64,000 bases of DNA from Escherichia coli (GTDB lineage Bacteria; Pseudomonadota; Gammaproteobacteria; Enterobacterales; Enterobacteriaceae): assembly GCF_024700885.2 (NCBI RefSeq), contig NZ_CP117016.1; one strand, 5' to 3'. Under the pieces are notes generated by a model, which was given only the letters and a program-made list of their open reading frames with translations, did no database searches and was not told the origin of the DNA. The number at the start of each line of letters is the position of its first letter. The first letter of the stretch is position 1. Made by a program: the position numbers and the translations under genes. Positions 19,691 to 49,507 of the stretch are shown one piece after another.

Positions 19691-22516
19691 ATGACAGTAA
19701 AAATTTCTGGCGTGCTTAAAGATGGCACAGGAAAACCAGTACAGAACTGCACCATTGTGCTGAAGGCCAGACGAACCAGCAGCACGGTGGTGGTGAACAC
19801 GGTGGCCTCTGAAAATCCGGATGAAGCCGGACGTTACAGCATGGATGTTGAGCATGGTCAGTACAGCGTCACCCTGCTGGTTGAAGGTTTTCCGCCTTCA
19901 CATGCCGGGACCATTACCGTCTATGAAGGTTCCAGACCAGGTACGCTGAATGATTTTCTCGGTGCCATGACGGAGGATGATGTCCGACCGGAGGCACTGC
20001 GCCGCTTTGAGCAGATGGTGGAAGAGGTGTCACGTAACGCCTCCGCGGTTGCACAGAATACGGCAGCCGCGAAAAAATCAGCCAGCGATGCCAGTGCATC
20101 AGCCAGCGAGGCGGCAACTCATGCAACCGATGCTGCAGCCTCAGCACGTGCCGCCAGCACGTCAGCCGGACAGGCCGCGTCGTCGGCTCAGTCAGCGTCT
20201 TCCAGCGCAGGAACGGCATCGACAAAGGCCCGTGAAGCAGCAAAAAGTGCTGCTGCTGCAGAGTCATCAAAAAGCGCGGCAGCTACCAGCGCCAGTGCCG
20301 CGAAAACGTCAGAAACGAATGCCGCAGCATCACAAAAATCGGCAGCCACTTCTGCATCCACAGCGACCACGAAGGCGTCAGAAGCTGCCACCTCGGCACG
20401 GGGTGCGGCGGCCTCAAAAGAGGCAGCGAAATCATCAGAAACGAACGCATCATCAAGCGCCAGTAGTGCCGCTTCCTCGGCAACGGCGGCAGGCAATTCC
20501 GCGAAGGCGGCAAAGACGTCTGAGACAAACGCCAGGTCTTCTGAAACGGCAGCGGGACAGAGCGCCTCGGCTGCGGCAGGCTCAAAAACAGCGGCTGCGT
20601 CGTCTGCCAGTGCCGCGTCAACAAGTGCCGGGCAGGCCTCAGCCAGTGCCACCGCCGCCGGAAAATCGGCAGAAAGCGCCGCATCATCCGCTTCAACAGC
20701 CACAACGAAGGCTGGCAAAGCCACTGAGCAAGCCACTGCAGCAGCGAGGTCTGCTTCTGCAGCAAAAACCTCTGAAACAAATGCAAAGACTTCAGCAGAC
20801 AATGCTGCTTCCTCTAAGGCGGCAGCCGCATCGTCAGCCAGTTCAGCGGCGTCATCGGCATCATCTGCGTCTGCTTCAAAAGATGAGGCGACCAGACAAG
20901 CGTCAGCAGCGAAAGGTAGTGCCACGACAGCAACAATGAAAGCATCAGAGGCAGCTGGTAGTGTGACGGCGGCAGCTCAGAGCAAAAGTACGGCGGAATC
21001 CGCGGCAACGCGCGCCGAGACAGCAGCAAAACGGGCAGAGGATATTGCATCCGCCGTGGCGCTGGAGGATGCGAGCACGACGAAAAAGGGGATAGTACAG
21101 CTCAGCAGTGCGACCAACAGCACTTCCGAGTCACTGGCGGCAACGCCAAAAGCGGTTAAGGCGGTAATGGGTGAAACGAACAAGAAAGCGCCCTTAAATA
21201 GTCCTGCACTGACCGGAACGCCAACAACACCAACTGCGCGACAGGGAACGAATAATACCCAAATCGCAAGCACGGCTTATGTTATGGCTGCGATCGCTGC
21301 CCTCGTGGACTCGTCGCCTGACGCACTGAATACGCTGAACGAGCTGGCTGCGGCGTTGGGCAACGACCCGAATTTTGCGACCACCATGACTAACGCGCTT
21401 GCGGGTAAGCAACCGAAAGATGCCACCCTGACGGCGCTGGCCGGGCTTGCTACTGCGGCAGACAGGTTTCCGTATTTTACGGGGAATGATGTTGCCAGTC
21501 TGGCAACCCTGACAAAAGTTGGGCGGGATATTCTTGCGAAATCGACCGTTGCCGCCGTTATCGAATACCTCGGTTTACGAGAACTCGGCACAAGCGGGGA
21601 GAAAATACCGTTACTCAGTACAGCGAATACCTGGACTAATCGACAAACATTCAGCGGTGGCCTTTCTGGTGAACTATCCGGCAATGCTTCTACAGCTGCA
21701 AAATTAAAAACTGCCAGGAAAATAAGCAATGTGGCTTTTGATGGTTCCTCCGATATCACATTAAAAGCAAGTCATGTTGGTGCGTTTGCCTTAGGGAAAA
21801 CAGGAAGCACCGTTGCGAATGATAAAGCAGTTGGATGGAACTGGAGTAGCGGAGCCTATAACGCAACTATTAGTGGTGCATCAACGTTAATTATTCATTT
21901 TTATATGGGAGAAGGAAGTTGTCCTGCAGCTCAGTTTCGGATTAATTATAAAAATGGCGGTGTTTTTTATCGTTCAGCCCGTGATGGTTATGGTTTTGAA
22001 GCCGACTGGTCCGAATTTTACACCACCACCAGAAAACCTTCAGCAGGAGATGTTGGTGCACTGCCGTTATCTGGTGGTCAACTGAATGGTACACTGGGTA
22101 TCGGAACATCCAGTGCTCTTGGCGGTAATTCGATTGTATTGGGTGATAATGACACGGGCTTTAAACAAAATGGCGATGGTAATCTGGATGTTTATGCTAA
22201 TAACGTCCATGTTATGCGCTTTGTCTCCGGAAGCATTCAAAGTAATAAAACCATAAATATTACAGGGCGTGTTAACCCCTCGGATTACGGTAACTTTGAT
22301 TCCCGTTATGTGAAAGATGTTCGACTTGGTTCACAGCAATATTATGGAGTGAACAACTGGCAAACATGGTATTTCCGGTGCCCTTCAGGTCATGTATTGT
22401 CTGGTATTAATGTTCAGGATACAGGGTCTAACTCTGCCGATAATATAGCGGGCGTTTATTACAGACCCGTTCAGAAGTATATAAATGGCACCTGGTATAA
22501 TGTAGCGAGCGTTTAA
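19691..22516 (+). CDS. stf: Side tail fibre protein Stf (constant N-terminal part plus current variable C-terminal part)
   Basis: N-terminus [28 protein letters not shown]...[20 protein letters not shown] closely resembles lambda Stf; long Ala/Ser/Thr-rich region; the left crossover site lies inside the gene. Confidence 0.9.
21558..21583 (+). promoter_or_regulatory. Left recombination crossover site (gix/pix-like 26-mer) for a Gin/Pin-family invertase
   Basis: TTATCGAATACCTCGGTTTACGAGAA; 22 of 26 positions match the reverse complement of the right site; the inverted-repeat similarity extends to about 40 bp. Confidence 0.7.
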
Positions 22517-22517
22517 T

Positions 22518-23051
22518 ATGATGCACTTAAAGAACATAAAAGCGGGTAATGCTAAAACACTGGAACAGTATGAGTTAACAAAGAAACACGGAGTTATCTG
22601 GCTTTACTCTGAGGACGAAAAAAACTGGTATGAGGAAGTGAAAAACTTTCAGCCAGACACCATAAAGATTGTTTACGATGAAAATAATATTATTGTTGCC
22701 ATAACCAAAGATGCCTCCACACTTAACCCTGAAGGTTATAGCGTCGTTGAGATTCCTGATATTACCGCCAACCGGCGTGCTGACGACTCAGGTAAATGGA
22801 TGTTTAAAGATGGCGCAGTCATTAAACGTGTATATACCGAAGAAGAGTTGCGCCTACAGACGGAAAACCAGAAAAAAATATTATTACAGCAGGCCAGAGA
22901 AAAAACGCAGTTCTGGCAAACACAGCTTACTTTGGGGATTATCACTGATTCAGACAGACAGCAACTGATGAACTGGATGCGATACGTGCAAAAGGTTGAG
23001 ACAACTGATACCTCGGTTCTTCCTGTAACATTCCCGGAACCACCAGAATAA
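22518..23051 (+). CDS. tfa: Tail fibre assembly protein Tfa (current orientation)
   Basis: 177-aa ORF starting 1 nt after the stf stop; Tfa-like sequence. Confidence 0.85.
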
Positions 23052-23081
23052 GAAAAGGCCCGTACGGGCCTTAATTTGTTG

Positions 23082-23609
23082 TTATTCTGGTTTCTGTGGC
23101 CATTCAGGCTTTGCAGTATCCACACGGCTGACCATAACGCTGTAGCGTTCCCATGATTCCAGTCGTGTGCGTTCCTCATCAGTTGCCATATTCAGTCTGA
23201 CAGCACGTTCCAGCGGTTGAATCACAGACTCCGCTTCGGAAAGCAAAGCGGCTTTTTGTAACTCTGCCTGCTGTTGCAGTTCCTGTTTTGTATATTCCCG
23301 CTTTACTACTTTACCATCCAGAAACTTCCAGTTTCCCGAGATATCGGCGCGACGGTTGGCTGTTATATTCGGTAACTCAACAACACTTAACCCGTCAGGG
23401 TTAAGTGTTGATACGTCTTTCTCAATACAACGAATAATCCCCTTCTGGTCATAAGCTATTTTTAAAGTATCATCCTGAAAGTTTTTTAATTCGTCATACC
23501 AGTTTTTACCGTCTTCTGTATATAGCCAGATAACGCCAGCTTTTTTCGTAAGCTGATACTGCTCAATGGTTTTGGGGTTTCCGGCGGTAATATTTTTCAG
23601 ATGTTGCAT
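23082..23609 (-). CDS. Alternative tail fibre assembly protein (Tfa') in the invertible segment
   Basis: 175-aa ORF convergent with tfa and paralogous to it ([30 protein letters not shown] vs [30 protein letters not shown]); a shared hairpin aaggcccgtacgggcctt lies between them. Confidence 0.8.
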
Positions 23610-23624
23610 ATATTCTCCTGATGG

Positions 23625-24593
23625 CTATGCCTGTTCAACGTTATACCAGTTACCAGAAATGTATTTTTGTAGTGGTCGTGACACCATCCAGTCATCTCCA
23701 TCAACCTCACCAATAATTTGCAATCCTGTTGTCACATGACCATTACCTGGTTCGCAAAGTCCTCCGCGATATAATGTGTCAGAACGTCTGCCTCCCAGAC
23801 GCACATTTCTGATAAAAGAACTATTCAGGTAATCATTTAAGTTTGAACCCCAGCACCCACCAAATATATTTCCATCGGTGTTATAACGGACGCCACCCGC
23901 AATAAGAGCACCCGGTGAAATAAAGGATTTATCGTTCGGGTTAAACTGCCATAAAGCATCATTACCGCCATCGCCACGCATATGAATACATGGAACCGGA
24001 AATCCATACTGTTCTGTCAGTAAATACCCAAAGCTGACCGCGCCGGGATAGCCCTGTCCATTGCGAATGGACAAGCCCTTAACTATCGGCACGTAATGAC
24101 CACCAGGAGTGGGATTCCAGGCAAACTGCGTCTGAACAAAAGGCGCGGTGGCATTATTCAACTGGTCTGCAAATGCGCCACTTCCATCAGGAATTATTCC
24201 CTGATGAATATATGCAACCCGCTTATAAAAATCAGCAGATGCGGGTTGAAGTCCAAATGCCAGTTGTCCATTTGAATAGAATAAAAGGACACCGTCGCCG
24301 CCCTGTTTAATACCAGTGTCGTTATCTCCGAGAGTAATGGAATTACCGCCCAGTGCGTTATCTGTACCAAGCGCCAGCCCACCATCAATTTTGGCCCCGT
24401 GGCTGACAGATATAGCACCTGTTCTCAGATTTATAGCGAATGGCCTTAATGGGCCTATATCACCGTTTTCGCCTTGTCCTTCAGCCGTCGGAATGAAATG
24501 AAGAAAATCTTCTGAACGACGGAAAATAAGACCGAAGGCATCATTGAAAATTCGCAGCGCATTCACCGTGCCAATTTTCAGTTCTCCGGTCAT
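23625..24593 (-). CDS. Alternative Stf C-terminal (receptor-binding) cassette, silent in this orientation
   Basis: 322-aa minus-strand ORF whose C-terminus (LQKYISGNWYNVEQA) parallels the current Stf C-terminus ([15 protein letters not shown]); reads in frame into the right crossover site. Confidence 0.75.
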   Translation of the reverse strand: MTGELKIGTVNALRIFNDAFGLIFRRSEDFLHFIPTAEGQGENGDIGPLRPFAINLRTGAISVSHGAKIDGGLALGTDNALGGNSITLGDNDTGIKQGGDGVLLFYSNGQLAFGLQPASADFYKRVAYIHQGIIPDGSGAFADQLNNATAPFVQTQFAWNPTPGGHYVPIVKGLSIRNGQGYPGAVSFGYLLTEQYGFPVPCIHMRGDGGNDALWQFNPNDKSFISPGALIAGGVRYNTDGNIFGGCWGSNLNDYLNSSFIRNVRLGGRRSDTLYRGGLCEPGNGHVTTGLQIIGEVDGDDWMVSRPLQKYISGNWYNVEQA

Positions 24594-24638
24594 TTTATCG
24601 CCGGAACGCTGAACGGCGTTACCAGCCTTGTTTACCGT

Positions 24639-24664
24639 TTCCTGTAAACCGAGGTTTTAGATAA
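24639..24664 (+). promoter_or_regulatory. Right recombination crossover site (gix/pix-like)
   Basis: TTCCTGTAAACCGAGGTTTTAGATAA, one base off the Gin/Pin/Cin crossover-site consensus as I remember it; the invertase remnant lies immediately downstream. Confidence 0.8.
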
Positions 24665-24718
24665 TGGCGGTTTCTGGCCTGTATGGCATGATTTGTGCTT
24701 TTGGACGGGAGATTCAGC

Positions 24719-24901
24719 GTGCTGATTGGCTATGTAAGGGTATCAACAAATGACCAGAATACAGATCTGCAACGAAACGCTCTTGTTTGTGCAGGATATG
24801 AACAAATATTTGAAGATAAATTAAGCGGAACAAGGACAGGCCGACCTGGATTAAAACGTGCTTTAAAGCGCCTTCAAAAAGGTGACGCACTGGTTGTCTG
24901 A
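24719..24901 (+). pseudogene. Truncated serine DNA invertase (Pin/Gin/Hin family), N-terminal about 60 codons only
   Basis: GTG-LIGYVRVSTNDQNTDLQRNALVCAGYEQIFEDKLSGTRTGRPGLKRALKRLQKGDALVV then TGA where family members continue WKLDRLGR; a second in-frame stop follows and similarity is then lost. Confidence 0.85.
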
Positions 24902-24951
24902 AAACTGGACTGACTGGTTCACTGTATGCGGCATCTTGTCGTGCTGGTGGT

Positions 24952-25094
24952 GGAAGCCTGGAAAAAGTATCGGGTGTTGCTGAACCGTGTTGATACATCA
25001 ACTGCACCTGATATTGAGTGGCCTACGAACCCTGTCAGGGAGTAATCATTGGGATTATGCCGCAGCACGTCTTAAGCAAGAACGTGCTGCGGTT
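24952..25094 (+). repeat. Direct repeat copy A: 3' end of a tfa-like gene plus terminator hairpin
   Basis: About 143 bp, roughly 88% identical by eye to 26001..26144; encodes ...[28 protein letters not shown] followed by hairpin ccgcagcacgt...acgtgctgcgg. Confidence 0.85.
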
Positions 25095-25099
25095 GGATG

Positions 25100-25768
25100 C
25101 TATTTTTTCCCTGAAGCGGAAAACATTACTACAGTACCTTGAACCTTGGTTTTAACATTCTCGAAATGCTCTGAGAGTATATGTGTTAAGCCTTCTTCGG
25201 AATCTTTTGTGTTTGAAAAGATGCCTTTCTGATTGTAAATGCGCATCAGTTTTTGACCGAAGCTATTGTGCACAACTCCATCGCCAAGAATTGTGGCTCC
25301 GTATAGAGTTCCATCGTCAGTTAAGGCCTGCGCCGCATTGCGTATTACACAGCTTTTTGTAGATATATTTCCAGGCAGGCAGTGAAGAAGGTAAAACATG
25401 GAAATGGAATCAAATTGACCATGTAACGCCGCGGGATAAGGTTCAAAAACATCATGGCTAATTTTATGTTTAATTTTTGATTCCCCAGCCCTTGTAGATG
25501 CCGCGTTCAGGCTAGCTTCGTTCAAATCCATTAAAGATATCAGACTACTCTCAGGTACGTGAGTAAGGTAAAACCCAGTTCCAACACCAATATCCAGATG
25601 GTTGTTACCTACATGTTCCAGAAAGTGTGGAAGAAGGTGTTCCTTTGTAGGACATCCCCATGCAAGCCGATTTGATACTCCCAAAACCCACCAGTCATAA
25701 AGCTTTAGGGTAAGTGGTGTGTAAATTTTAGCCCCATCATCTGTGTTTTTTTTCATTGATTTCACCAT
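25100..25768 (-). CDS. Class I SAM-dependent methyltransferase (substrate unknown); prophage cargo gene
   Basis: 222-aa ORF with Rossmann SAM-binding motif LDIGVGTGFYL; no DPPY/NPPY or PC-type DNA-methyltransferase motifs seen; appears AT-richer than its surroundings; flanked by the direct repeats. Confidence 0.7.
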   Translation of the reverse strand: MVKSMKKNTDDGAKIYTPLTLKLYDWWVLGVSNRLAWGCPTKEHLLPHFLEHVGNNHLDIGVGTGFYLTHVPESSLISLMDLNEASLNAASTRAGESKIKHKISHDVFEPYPAALHGQFDSISMFYLLHCLPGNISTKSCVIRNAAQALTDDGTLYGATILGDGVVHNSFGQKLMRIYNQKGIFSNTKDSEEGLTHILSEHFENVKTKVQGTVVMFSASGKK

Positions 25769-25824
25769 GTTATAGTTTTATTTGTGAATTAAATCAATTA
25801 TGGCGATGAATTACAAGGGGTTAA

Positions 25825-26094
25825 ATGCTGCCGCAGCATAGCGATATTGAAATAGCCTGGTATGCTTCGATACAGCAGGAGCCGAATGGCTGGAAGACCG
25901 TCACCACACAGTTCTACATCCAGGAATTCAGTGAGTATATTGCGCCACTGCAGGATGCTGTAGATCTGGAAATCGCAACGGAGGAAGAAAGATCGTTGCT
26001 GGAGGCATGGAATAAATATCGGGTATTGTTGAATCGTGTTGTTACATCAACTGCACCTGATATTGAGTGGCCTGCAAATCCTGTCAGGGAGTAA
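25825..26094 (+). CDS. Tfa C-terminal-domain-like small protein (89 aa); likely remnant
   Basis: C-terminus [50 protein letters not shown] is the Tfa C-terminal signature; the N-terminus is unrelated. Confidence 0.5.
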
Positions 26095-26144
26095 TCATTG
26101 GGATTATGCCGCAGACACGTCGTATGCAGGAACGTGCTGCGGTT
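26001..26144 (+). repeat. Direct repeat copy B (see 24952..25094)
   Basis: Same tfa 3' end plus hairpin, diverged. Confidence 0.85.
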
Positions 26145-26208
26145 AGTTTGTGAGCTTTCGATAGTGGTTGTTATTTTTGCCCTTATTTGTTCCGGAGGCC
26201 ATGGTTCA

Positions 26209-26379
26209 ATGGTCCGTCTGCCCCCTGTGGTGATGTCAGCAAAATCAGCCACTGCGCGAACCACAATAGCCCGGGAAGATGCTGAAGATCACCAGGTAAA
26301 GCTATCAGCGCAGAAACTGGAAGAACTGCTCGCATCAATGGTTAAGGATGAGGTTGATCGCAATGATGGGATTTATTGA
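26209..26379 (+). CDS. Hypothetical small protein; may be a decayed gene fragment
   Basis: ORF only (MVRLPPVVMSAKSATARTTIAREDAEDHQVKLSAQKLEELLASMVKDEVDRNDGIY); coiled-coil-like reading continues in another frame after the stop. Confidence 0.15.
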   Translation: MVRLPPVVMSAKSATARTTIAREDAEDHQVKLSAQKLEELLASMVKDEVDRNDGIY

Positions 26380-26691
26380 CGTCAGCGAGAGCAGAAGGAA
26401 GAACTGAATAACCTGAATGATTTACGCTCAATCAGAGCGATGATGATTGGCAGTAATTAGCGGTCAATTTCGGTTTTGTTGGCTGTGCGCTCCCCGCCCA
26501 GCATTGCGCGTCAATTAGCCCCAAAAAAACGAAAAAGTTACAATCAAGTAAAAAATTCCTTCTGCAAAACTAAAAAAGATTTCAATAAAATCAGACAGTT
26601 AAAAACATAAAAAAAAGGTACAAAAAAACATCTCAAAGTCTTGTTTTTTGCTTCAAATACAATTGGTTATTGTGTTTTTTGAAACCTACCA

Positions 26692-26808
26692 GTGTGGTAC
26701 ATGGATATCGATACCACCGCCAATTATAAACTGGGCGGTGCACAGCAACACGATAGCGTACGCCTCGATCCGTGGGTGTTTATGTTCTCAGCAGGATATC
26801 GTTTTTAA
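26692..26808 (+). pseudogene. ompW: 3' remnant of ompW (last about 38 codons) at the prophage-chromosome junction
   Basis: Translates to VWYMDIDTTANYKLGGAQQHDSVRLDPWVFMFSAGYRF*, which I recognise as the OmpW C-terminus; no upstream ompW coding sequence precedes it; in K-12 ompW is the intact neighbour of yciE. Confidence 0.8.
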
Positions 26809-26867
26809 TTCCGCACAAAAACGACCCCGTAATATACGGGGTCAATAAGGACATGGCATAAAGGGTA

Positions 26868-27374
26868 TTATTTCTTCGCTTCTACGCCATCAGTTTCAGA
26901 GCGAATTAAAAATTTCTCAGTTGTTTGCGGAATATGCTGAATCAGCCAGTCGGCCATTTCTTTTTCCTCATTTAAAATCGCTTCGATGGTTGGAATTGAA
27001 GCTGTATCACCGGCATTTTTTGCTGCTGCTAATAGTGAGGTGTAACAGGCGATTTCAAATTGCTCGAAGACATATCCGCTAATAGAGCCTTTGACTATTT
27101 CATCAGAAGGGAATATACCACCGATTGACTGCCCAAGCGCAGCCATTTTACTCATGGAATCTTTAATGACTGAACGTGAAATGTCATTACGATCAAGAAT
27201 AGTTTCCAGTTGAACAATCTGGTTTTTGGTTTCACTAAGATGTTGTTCAATACGAGCGCGTAGTTCAGGATAATTATCTATACGACTAGCCATGGATTCA
27301 AGCATAGATTCGGCTTGCTTTTCCATTGCGTGGGCGTCACGTAACCAGTCATGATAATGTTCAATACGATTCAT
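26868..27374 (-). CDS. yciE: YciE, ferritin-like stress protein
   Basis: 168-aa ORF starting MNRIEHYHDWLRDAHAMEKQAE; matches K-12 YciE; synteny with yciF and yciG. Confidence 0.93.
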   Translation of the reverse strand: MNRIEHYHDWLRDAHAMEKQAESMLESMASRIDNYPELRARIEQHLSETKNQIVQLETILDRNDISRSVIKDSMSKMAALGQSIGGIFPSDEIVKGSISGYVFEQFEIACYTSLLAAAKNAGDTASIPTIEAILNEEKEMADWLIQHIPQTTEKFLIRSETDGVEAKK

Positions 27375-27419
27375 GAAAATGTCCTCTTTATAAAATGACT
27401 AAAAGTTAAAGTTCATATT

Positions 27420-27920
27420 TCAGGCTTTATTTTCGGCTTTCTTATTTACGTTATTAAGTGCCAGATCAGTCAGTTTGATGTCGGTGGCCTTTTCTTCTTC
27501 AAGAGTTTCTTTCAGAAGTTTCGCTGCTTTACGGTAACCTAATTGTTCAGCCAGCGTCGCTAAGATCCCGTAACTGGCGATCTCATAGTGCTCGACTTTC
27601 TGTGCAGCGGCAATCAGTGCGGCATCACGTACTTCGTTTTTCAAGGTACTTTCGATGACCTCATTAGCTTCTTCAATGAGACCTTCCATTGCCACACATT
27701 TCATGCGCTTAATTTTCAGATTCGATTCAGATTCCACAACTTGATCAATACGTTCAATCTGTCCATGTGTTTCCTCGAGGTGCGCATGAAAAGCCTGACT
27801 TAATTTTTCGTTTGATGTTGCTCTTGCGAGTTTTGCCAGTGCCCGGGTTAATTGTTTTTCTGCGCTGTAGGTATCTGAAAGCAGGTGAATAAAGACATCT
27901 TCAATGGTCTTCATATTCAT
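27420..27920 (-). CDS. yciF: YciF, ferritin-like stress protein
   Basis: Starts MNMKTIEDVFIHLLSDTYSAEKQL, 166 aa; the longer ORF-track start is rejected. Confidence 0.93.
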   Translation of the reverse strand: MNMKTIEDVFIHLLSDTYSAEKQLTRALAKLARATSNEKLSQAFHAHLEETHGQIERIDQVVESESNLKIKRMKCVAMEGLIEEANEVIESTLKNEVRDAALIAAAQKVEHYEIASYGILATLAEQLGYRKAAKLLKETLEEEKATDIKLTDLALNNVNKKAENKA

Positions 27921-28005
27921 ATTTTTCTCCAGTGAAATCACTGCGAGCCATACGGCCCGCAGATGCAATTATCTTTATCAACTGATATTAATAATTAACG
28001 GTGAA

Positions 28006-28185
28006 TCAGGATTTTCCTGATTTATTACCACCGCTTTGTTGACCGCCTTTTTTACCCGCTTCAGATGCGCGTTGCGGATCATTTTTAAAATTACCGCCGC
28101 TATGCTGACCGCCTTTACGGCCAGCGTCGGATGCCTTTTCACGGTCTTCGGCGAAATTTCCTGAACCACCACGATGTTCGGCCAT
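28006..28185 (-). CDS. yciG: YciG, small Gly-rich stress protein
   Basis: MAEHRGGSGNFAEDREKASDAGRKGGQHSGG... 59 aa. Confidence 0.9.
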   Translation of the reverse strand: MAEHRGGSGNFAEDREKASDAGRKGGQHSGGNFKNDPQRASEAGKKGGQQSGGNKSGKS

Positions 28186-28565
28186 GTTATTTCTCCCGTT
28201 GCGTTGCATTGTTTCATTAATATGAGTGTTGTGTGTCGACACTCATTAAAATTAGTCGCTAATGAAAATTAGTCAAATTAAGCGCAACGAGAAGAAAGAG
28301 GGAAAATATATTATGAGGAACATTCTGGATATATTAACAATTGCCTGAGGAATAAGTGACTTAGAGAAAATTATTGATTTTACTGGTGTTATGTTGCGGG
28401 ATTAATTTGTTTGATTATATTACTGTTGGGCGGAAAAAAGACGTAAGTTGACTTTCGACAGGGGTAAGCGAAACGGTAAAAAGATAAATAATAAATGAAT
28501 TTAGGATTTTTCCAGCTTCGTTAAAGAAAGTTAAAATGCCGCCAGCGGAACTGGCGGCTGTGGGA

Positions 28566-35116: not shown

Positions 35117-35145
35117 CAAAAAAAAGCCCGCTCATTAGGCGGGCT
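35117..35145 (-). terminator. trp attenuator (3:4 terminator hairpin plus U tract)
   Basis: Minus strand reads agcccgc-ctaatga-gcgggct followed by tttttttt. Confidence 0.95.
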
Positions 35146-35187
35146 GGGTATCTGATTGCTTTACGCATGGTGAATACACTGCCCGTT

Positions 35188-35232
35188 TCAGGAAGTGCGC
35201 CACCAACCTTTCAGTACGAAAATTGCTTTCAT
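35188..35232 (-). CDS. trpL: trp operon leader peptide (14 aa, tandem Trp codons)
   Basis: Minus strand atgaaagcaattttcgtactgaaaggttggtggcgcacttcctga = [14 protein letters not shown]. Confidence 0.95.
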
Positions 35233-49135: not shown

Positions 49136-49248
49136 TTATCATCATTCTTATTACCCATTTTTAATGAATTAAAGGGCTTTTAATACACCGCAGCAATAAC
49201 AGGTTGAGTTATCTCAACACAAAGTAATAACCGTTAAAGGTGTAGCCT

Positions 49249-49344
49249 ATGATCAACACAAATATGAAATATTGGTCCTGGATGGGCGCGTTTTCTCTGT
49301 CGATGTTCTTCTGGGCCGAATTCCTCTGTATCATTACTCACTGA
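49249..49344 (+). CDS. Candidate 31-aa small hydrophobic protein upstream of acnA
   Basis: ATG ORF MINTNMKYWSWMGAFSLSMFFWAEFLCIITH*; I half-recall a K-12 small protein (ymiC) here but am not certain. Confidence 0.35.
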   Translation: MINTNMKYWSWMGAFSLSMFFWAEFLCIITH

Positions 49345-49507
49345 TCCCTGACCCCGCTGCGGCGGGGTTTTCATTTGCTTTGCCACAAGGTTTCTCCTCT
49401 TTTATCAATTTGGGTTGTTATCAAATCGTTACGCGATGTTTGTGTTATCTTTAATATTCACCCTGAAGAGAATCAGGGCTTCGCAACCCTGTCATTAAGG
49501 AGGAGCT

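Follow-up and report, generated by a model that had tools for sequence, protein, structure and literature searches.

The methyltransferase locus

We studied a methyltransferase gene and its surroundings at the extreme right arm of a lambda-like prophage of Escherichia coli, with tail-fibre genes on one side and the attachment site attR on the other. The DNA that we analysed, which we call the window, is a 64,000-nt stretch of the chromosome (contig NZ_CP117016.1 of assembly GCF_024700885.2). From position 1 to ~26.7 kb, the window consists of the late region of this prophage (terminase, portal, tail genes, J, lom, and stf). At the locus itself lie the following features:

24720-24954, plus strand: pin-type serine DNA invertase, truncated to codons 1-79 of ~184-196 (listed as an open reading frame, or ORF, at 24695-24901)
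24948-25094, plus strand: left copy of a direct repeat: the 3'-terminal ~30 codons of a lambda-type tfa, in frame with pin, followed by a hairpin (MAFFT and a repeat finder)
25100-25768, minus strand: ybcY, an intact ORF of 222 amino acids (aa) for a predicted class I S-adenosylmethionine (SAM)-dependent methyltransferase (Pfam, PHROG, and the match to K-12)
25769-25824, minus strand: spacer between the divergent ybcY and tfaX, with predicted sigma-70 promoters for ybcY (hexamers located; promoter scan)
25825-26094, plus strand: tfaX-like ORF of 89 aa (full-length match to phrog_2341; partial tfa according to the Prokaryotic Genome Annotation Pipeline, PGAP)
25997-26144, plus strand: right copy of the direct repeat, made up of the tfaX 3' end and a hairpin at 26109-26142 (MAFFT and a repeat finder)

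By its sequence, the methyltransferase gene is ybcY, which was named in the cryptic prophage DLP12 of E. coli K-12 (b0562). The two copies are 99.0% identical over 669 nt, with a 2-nt deletion in K-12, and the annotation of phage PhiR26_1 also names its gene ybcY. Residues 5-222 match the whole of phrog_2132 (positions 1-218 of 218; E = 4.2e-157), a family that is listed as being of unknown function. All 36 aligned homologues, like this match, start at M5 (25756), which is preceded by a GGTGA Shine-Dalgarno sequence. The true start is probably M5, which would give a product of 218 aa.

The direct repeat is 147 nt long and ~90% identical between its copies, with one 1-nt indel (24948-25065 and 25066-25094 versus 25997-26114 and 26116-26144) and the copies are spaced 1049-1050 nt apart. 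A shared lambda-type Tfa C-terminus, EAW(K/N)KYRVLLNRV(D/V)...(T/A)NPVRE, is encoded by the two copies and ends at stop codons at 25043-25045 and 26092-26094, and in each copy a GC-rich hairpin lies 15-17 nt past the stop. The stems are at 25060-25070 and 25082-25092 on the left (folding z-score -4.4) and at 26109-26120 and 26132-26142 on the right (z-score -2.2). The tfaX-like ORF joins an unrelated N-terminus of 31 aa to ~58 aa of lambda-type Tfa C-terminus (Tfa profiles match residues ~30-87). Its length differs by locus (61 aa in K-12, 101 aa in phages, and 89 aa in the window), and it is probably a non-functional remnant. As a stub derived from tfa, tfaX is a constant companion of ybcY.

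A first-pass annotation, made from the DNA letters alone, had described much of this: direct repeats derived from tfa 3' ends on either side of an intact, minus-strand, 222-aa class I methyltransferase, with the left copy fused to a truncated invertase and the right copy ending a chimeric 89-aa Tfa-like ORF. All of these features are there, although the left edge of the repeat lies 4 nt further out than the 24952 and 26001 that it gave. It had also described the hairpins as terminators. The hairpins are strong, but the label is only partly supported: the left hairpin has its T-run 10 nt beyond the stem and is not flagged by a terminator scan, and the right hairpin is only partly flagged.

A widely shared cassette

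At a threshold of at least 95% identity, ybcY is present in ~71% of complete E. coli genomes (3831 of 5426), with up to four copies in a genome. Of 50,697 phage records, 15 contain the gene; among these are the inducible lambdoid phages ev243, 2G7b, PhiR26_1, Kati, and Turner. The exact arrangement pin'::tfa'-ybcY-tfaX occurs in 784 genomes, including NCTC86 and O25b:H4 strains.

Copies of the block 24948-26049, with 97-99.5% identity, are present in K-12, in inducible lambdoid phages (ev243, 2G7b, and PhiR26_1), and in prophages at several attachment sites. For example, K-12 has a contiguous 97% match to 24948-26071, while 2G7b and PhiR26_1 match 24948-26049 at 98.8-99.5% identity and have a full-length tfa before ybcY. 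We used BLAST to compare the window with nine loci (NCTC86, three phages, K-12, O157:H7, enterotoxigenic E. coli or ETEC, a DLP12 remnant, and a potB-side prophage). The region of homology begins at 24948, 24972, 25054, or 25060 and ends at 25851, 26049, or 26071, so the hairpin and ybcY always travel together: the hairpin at 25060-25092 is attached to ybcY in every context that we examined. In the loci with a lambda-type tfa on the left (PhiR26_1, 2G7b, K-12, and strain 98210), the homology starts at 24948 and runs leftwards as full-length tfa; the left repeat copy itself continues into full-length tfa in PhiR26_1, in K-12 tfaD, and in 98210. Where other cargo lies to the left, the homology starts at the hairpin, and the neighbours are ydfK/ynaM in ETEC and a yciGFE-katN-like cluster in O157:H7. 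Rightwards, the phages part from the window after 26049. Judging from these breakpoints, the constant unit is the hairpin, ybcY, the spacer, and the 5' two-thirds of tfaX.

The right repeat copy is partly of another origin. Positions 26050-26144 do not resemble the tfaX 3' end of the phages or K-12 but do resemble a genuine tfa 3' end with its hairpin, at 87-95% identity to various tfa alleles. By this comparison, the right copy is a recombinant, in which tfaX crossed with a third tfa allele in this lineage. It would be because of this crossover that the repeat reaches 147 nt and takes in the hairpin.

We also built a query that represents the product of deletion between the two repeats and searched the 5426 genomes with it. 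A true empty site would have topped the ranking. We found occupied sites only, as two pieces spanning 1911 bp, so there is no sign that the repeats are currently mobilising ybcY.

The left joint and the truncated invertase

To the left of ybcY lies an invertible tail-fibre segment, which is bounded by two inverted repeats:

21552-21583, no strand: left inverted repeat, inside stf (32 nt, 84% complementary to 24639-24670)
24639-24670, no strand: right inverted repeat, resembling a gix/pix crossover site and lying immediately before the pin remnant

The sequence TTCCTGTAAACCGAGGTTTTAGATAA in the right repeat (24639-24670) resembles the Gin/Pin crossover consensus. Between the repeats are the window's two functional tfa genes, which lie back to back at 22518-23051 (plus strand) and 23082-23609 (minus strand), and an alternative fibre tip at 23625-24593 on the minus strand. 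The C-termini of these two tfa genes are unrelated to the lambda-type ending that is common to the left remnant and tfaX.

The invertase remnant has 74% nucleotide identity to nt 2-236 of K-12 pinE, and the alignment ends at 24954, which is codon 79. This homology extends past an in-frame TGA at 24899-24901 (the translation has a second TGA four codons on, at 24911-24913), and the pin frame reads through the joint into the tfa tail. The remnant matches the DNA invertase families phrog_8275 and phrog_125, and PGAP labels it “recombinase family protein, missing C-terminus.” An intact pin allele that is 92-95% identical, accompanied by the same pair of inverted tfa genes, is present in one P2-like prophage and in one Mu-like prophage, where it lies beside com.

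The left fusion seems best explained by the replacement of one tail-fibre module by another, of Mu/P2 type. The starting point would be a lambdoid prophage that already carried stf-tfa-hairpin-ybcY-tfaX. A Mu/P2-type invertible module (stf tip, tfa, inverted tfa' and stf', and pin) would then have recombined in and replaced the resident lambda-type fibre tip and tfa. The right-hand joint would have been illegitimate yet in frame, at a short CTGG..GG microhomology between codon ~79 of pin and a site in tfa ~30 codons before its stop, and ybcY itself would have stayed put. A single joint of this kind would account for the cut-off invertase and for the shortness of the left repeat: the joining of the pin-bearing module would have removed most of the resident lambda-type tfa. 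If so, the locus is a clean case of tail-fibre module replacement in a lambdoid prophage, with an invertase that was truncated by its own graft and the tail of the old tfa left behind as a scar.

Expression

The gene ybcY lies on the minus strand and reads leftwards, antisense to the phage late operon. Our prediction is that the lysogen expresses ybcY, from a sigma-70 promoter that belongs to the gene itself and lies in the AT-rich spacer, and that the transcript is ended or stabilised by the GC-rich hairpin at 25060-25092. The predicted promoter is TTGATT-17-TATAAC (25797-25769), and its hexamers are identical to those listed for K-12 ybcY. A promoter scan gave a second candidate just upstream, TTAACC-16-CATAAT (25824-25797). 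The K-12 hexamers, together with an H-NS site, are listed in a survey of constitutive sigma-70 promoters by genomic SELEX (systematic evolution of ligands by exponential enrichment) (PMC3946193). The G+C content is 0.41-0.42 over the cassette versus 0.46-0.50 in its flanks. These features fit a moron that would be independent of the late operon and is possibly silenced by H-NS.

The enzyme and its relatives

The product of ybcY is predicted to be a class I (Rossmann-fold) SAM-dependent methyltransferase of the small-molecule type, with 218-222 aa. It matches the Pfam families Methyltransf_12, 23, 25, 11, and 31, and it has the glycine-rich motif I (LDIGVGTG, residues 58-65), the acidic residues after strands 2 and 3 (D81 and D106), and the seven-stranded alpha/beta fold of this class. 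The AlphaFold model has a pLDDT (predicted local distance difference test) of 91. Across 37 homologues, 59 columns are invariant, including DIGVGTG, D81, H105-D106, and YLLHCLPG.

The fold search that the first-pass annotation had called for does lead to small-molecule enzymes. Beyond enterobacterial orthologues, a Foldseek search of AFDB50 returned many fungal proteins at 36-46% identity, with a large group labelled “Methyltransf_12” at 40-46%. Among the nearest characterised relatives is VerB from the verrucosidin cluster (36% identity, template modelling or TM score 0.91, and Foldseek E = 6e-26). VerB groups with AurB, CtvB, and AstB, which O-methylate an alpha-pyrone hydroxyl, and this activity has been shown experimentally for the VerB orthologue DovB (PMC12312803); another report gives verB only as putative (PMC8176439). 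Searches of PDB sequences gave weak matches to juvenile-hormone acid methyltransferase and UbiG, which fit O-methyltransferases and are not specific. We made no assignment from the NCBIfam models CpaM, RquA, and PmtA, as their scores of 16-18 bits fall below the cut-offs of 175-390. A PADLOC search gave no evidence of a role in defence: its sole match was mad2, which was insignificant (E = 0.009).

Bacterial homologues at 56-68% identity are orphan chromosomal genes without phage or biosynthetic neighbours. The homologue in Salmonella lies between an ArnT-like gene and cybB/hrpA, the one in Enterobacter follows a liv-type transporter, and the one in Aeromonas is beside insertion sequence (IS) elements. 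We looked for tfa fragments or the hairpin beside these chromosomal homologues and found none. Among more distant homologues, the neighbourhoods show no conserved operon, so context gives no functional hint. We conclude that the phage gene would have been captured from an enterobacterial chromosome.

Given these relatives, ybcY appears to encode a small-molecule methyltransferase, most likely an O-methyltransferase. We see a roughly even chance that it would O-methylate an acidic hydroxyl or enol on a small metabolite or xenobiotic, as lysogenic conversion or as detoxification. A more specific version is rather doubtful: that ybcY is a lysogenic-conversion O-methyltransferase that modifies or neutralises a particular acidic molecule of the enol or phenol type, to the benefit of the ~70% of E. 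coli that carry it, and that the conserved tfa 3' end and hairpin act as a homology patch that moves ybcY between tail-fibre modules. The target could, for example, be a pyrone, a 4-hydroxyquinolone, or a similar microbial or dietary toxin or signal. For ybcY (b0562), tfaX, and tfaD, we found no functional study in the literature; we found just a promoter table, a mention of no phenotype, and a mention of synteny with ompT. By way of the fungal pyrone enzymes, a prophage gene that is intact and present in ~71% of complete E. coli genomes gains a testable lead, namely small-molecule O-methylation.

Other features of the region

Two more features lie to the right of tfaX:

26191-26460, plus strand: remnant of a DUF4376/tail-fibre-like gene with an internal stop (PGAP annotation transferred from the NCTC86 locus, which is 99.3% identical)
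~26683-26808, plus strand: 3' fragment of ompW, 126 nt, on the attR side (NCTC86 annotation mapped to the window; coordinates approximate)

The DUF4376 remnant sits between tfaX and the prophage end, and the ORF at 26098-26379 has matches to phrog_1141 and phrog_7703. The ompW fragment follows these remnants, so the prophage is integrated in ompW. Beyond this fragment is the chromosomal yciE-yciF-yciG-trpABCD region.

Several prophages and phages carry further cargo near ybcY. In the O157:H7 prophage of F1273 (locus positions 290-2503), an Mn catalase and yciE-, yciF-, and yciG-like genes lie between tfa and hairpin-ybcY. This cluster has 74% DNA identity to the chromosomal yciE-yciF-yciG just outside the window's prophage (26867-28196), and it looks like host genes of another enterobacterium that were picked up by a phage. 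In ev243, 2G7b, PhiR26_1, ETEC4088, and several prophages, the genes after ybcY-tfaX are one for an alpha/beta hydrolase of ~495 aa and then ompT, before int. From this gene order, ybcY-tfaX is within a longer string of right-arm cargo, and the ompT of DLP12 is part of it.

An ORF of 45 aa at 25018-25155 (plus strand) overlaps the left hairpin and the 3' end of ybcY. It is in RefSeq as a hypothetical protein (WP_001309429.1) and is most likely an annotation artefact. An Rfam search gave no matches in the cassette region. Elsewhere in the window it found the small RNA STnc180 (49176-49378, plus strand) and the trp operon leader (35118-35211, minus strand), which are ordinary chromosomal features.

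Discussion

We are fairly confident that this locus is the end of the right arm of a lambda-like prophage in ompW, that it carries ybcY as a common moron, that its left joint results from module replacement, and that the gene encodes a small-molecule enzyme. In this account, what the analysis demonstrates is which gene this is, how the repeats are built, where the breakpoints fall, how the gene is distributed, and its fold; the use of the promoter and the chemistry are inferred. Some points weigh against this account. The order of recombination events is one that we infer from present-day arrangements. The -10 hexamer TATAAC abuts the first ATG, so the transcript from that promoter would be nearly leaderless, and neither hairpin is a canonical intrinsic terminator on the ybcY strand (no U-run follows). 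Also, deletion of ybcY from K-12 had no phenotype in an Hha toxicity assay (PMC2408971), although the K-12 copy is a pseudogene anyway.

The first-pass annotation had read the locus as a captured cargo cassette, with recombination of tfa 3' ends as the mechanism. A circle with one tfa end could, for example, have brought ybcY into this prophage by Campbell-type integration and made the repeats, and homologous direct repeats around inserted DNA are the expected scar of a single crossover. Moron-type cargo between tfa repeats is indeed what we find, and the recombination of the right copy (26050-26144) with a third tfa allele implies that tfa 3' ends do serve as crossover points. However, capture by this prophage is not supported, because the block 24948-26049 pre-exists as a widely shared module: these 1.1 kb, at 97-99.5% identity and already flanked by tfa and tfaX, occur in numerous phages and prophages whose left tfa is full length, so the cassette predates this rearrangement. 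The annotation had itself named conserved synteny in related prophages as evidence that would count against it, and we see just that, with tfaD-ybcY-tfaX in K-12 and tfa-ybcY-tfaX in phages. The left copy appears to have been truncated by the fusion to pin rather than by a crossover in tfa, and no empty or excised site turned up among the 5426 genomes. We consider it unlikely that ybcY entered this prophage in this way. The older duplication of tfa and tfaX around ybcY could stem from recombination at tfa 3' ends, and such an ancient duplication is possible.

The enzyme might be a nucleic-acid methyltransferase, placed like mom of phage Mu downstream of gin, and act on DNA (for anti-restriction or as an epigenetic mark) or on transfer or ribosomal RNA. 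But as the first-pass annotation had also noticed, the features of a DNA methyltransferase are lacking. Inspection found no (D/N/S)PP(Y/F) or PCQ motif, at 218 aa the protein has no target-recognition domain, and no Pfam DNA-methylase family matched, which leaves none of the catalytic motifs ((D/N/S)PP(Y/F/W), PCQ, or ENV), domains, or profiles of the N6A, N4C, or C5 enzymes. The top relatives by both structure and sequence are small-molecule enzymes, the 56-68% homologues in Salmonella and Enterobacter stand alone without phage or restriction context, and the only PADLOC match is insignificant. From this pattern, a role on DNA or RNA is unlikely, and the mom-like scenario as a whole seems to us very improbable. 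It is also quite unlikely that the region is just decaying prophage debris and that ybcY has no function and is drifting towards the pseudogene state seen in K-12. The remnants around it (pin', tfa', tfaX, and DUF4376' with its internal stop), the 2-nt deletion in the K-12 copy, and the clusters of truncated variants of 161 aa (445 members) and 130 aa (30 members) would all suit such decay. Yet the intact 222-aa sequence accounts for 6589 member sequences, ybcY is present in inducible, plaque-forming phages, and conservation within the family is strong across Enterobacterales, Aeromonas, and Pasteurellaceae (the 59 invariant columns). Most pairs of E. coli copies differ at too few sites (0-5) for dN/dS, the ratio of nonsynonymous to synonymous substitution rates, to be informative; only the most divergent copy (L016) was usable, and against it the analogous ratio of differences, pN/pS, is 0.21, from 13 differences.

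Comparison with known systems

Like the fungal enzymes AurB, CtvB, AstB, and VerB (DovB), with which it shares sequence homology, the ybcY product has their size and fold. The fungal alpha-pyrone enzymes belong to polyketide synthase (PKS) clusters, whereas ybcY and its bacterial chromosomal homologues are orphan genes: we found no PKS or tailoring genes adjoining ybcY or its homologues in Salmonella, Enterobacter, or Aeromonas. So we would not file ybcY as a member of the alpha-pyrone O-methyltransferases, which we regard as its nearest characterised relatives only.

The fibre segment at 21552-24670 has the same layout as the invertible segments of Mu (G/gin), P1 (C/cin), and e14 (P/pin): a constant stf, a back-to-back pair of tfa genes, an alternative stf tip, inverted repeats, and an invertase downstream. 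Unlike in those segments, the invertase in the window is reduced to 79 codons with stop codons. The segment is frozen and could only invert if Pin were supplied in trans.

Phage morons include lom and bor of lambda and the morons of HK97 and HK022, for which Juhala and Hendrix put forward the concept. The gene ybcY resembles them in that it is one added gene, flanked by conserved phage genes, opposite in strand to the late operon, and patchy among related phages. It also has its own putative promoter, ends in a hairpin, and is lower in G+C than its neighbours. It is extra in that only some relatives have it, and its left neighbour varies (tfa, ydfK/ynaM, the yciGFE-katN-like cluster, or pin'). 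It differs from textbook morons in that the hairpin is not a canonical terminator and that its independent expression is predicted from sequence.

The closest comparison is with tfaD-ybcY-tfaX in DLP12 of K-12, which shares with the window the orientation, the flanking tfa 3' end, the hairpin, tfaX, and the promoter hexamers. The K-12 ybcY is a frameshifted pseudogene, while that of the window is intact. To the left, K-12 has the longer tfaD where the window has the pin::tfa fusion; to the right, K-12 continues to appY-ompT while the window continues to the tfa end and hairpin, the DUF4376 remnant, and attR in ompW. The gene ybcY in a tfa/tfaX setting was already known, with annotations in K-12 and thousands of genomes, and what is specific to this lineage is the pin::tfa fusion on the left and the recombinant end of tfaX on the right.

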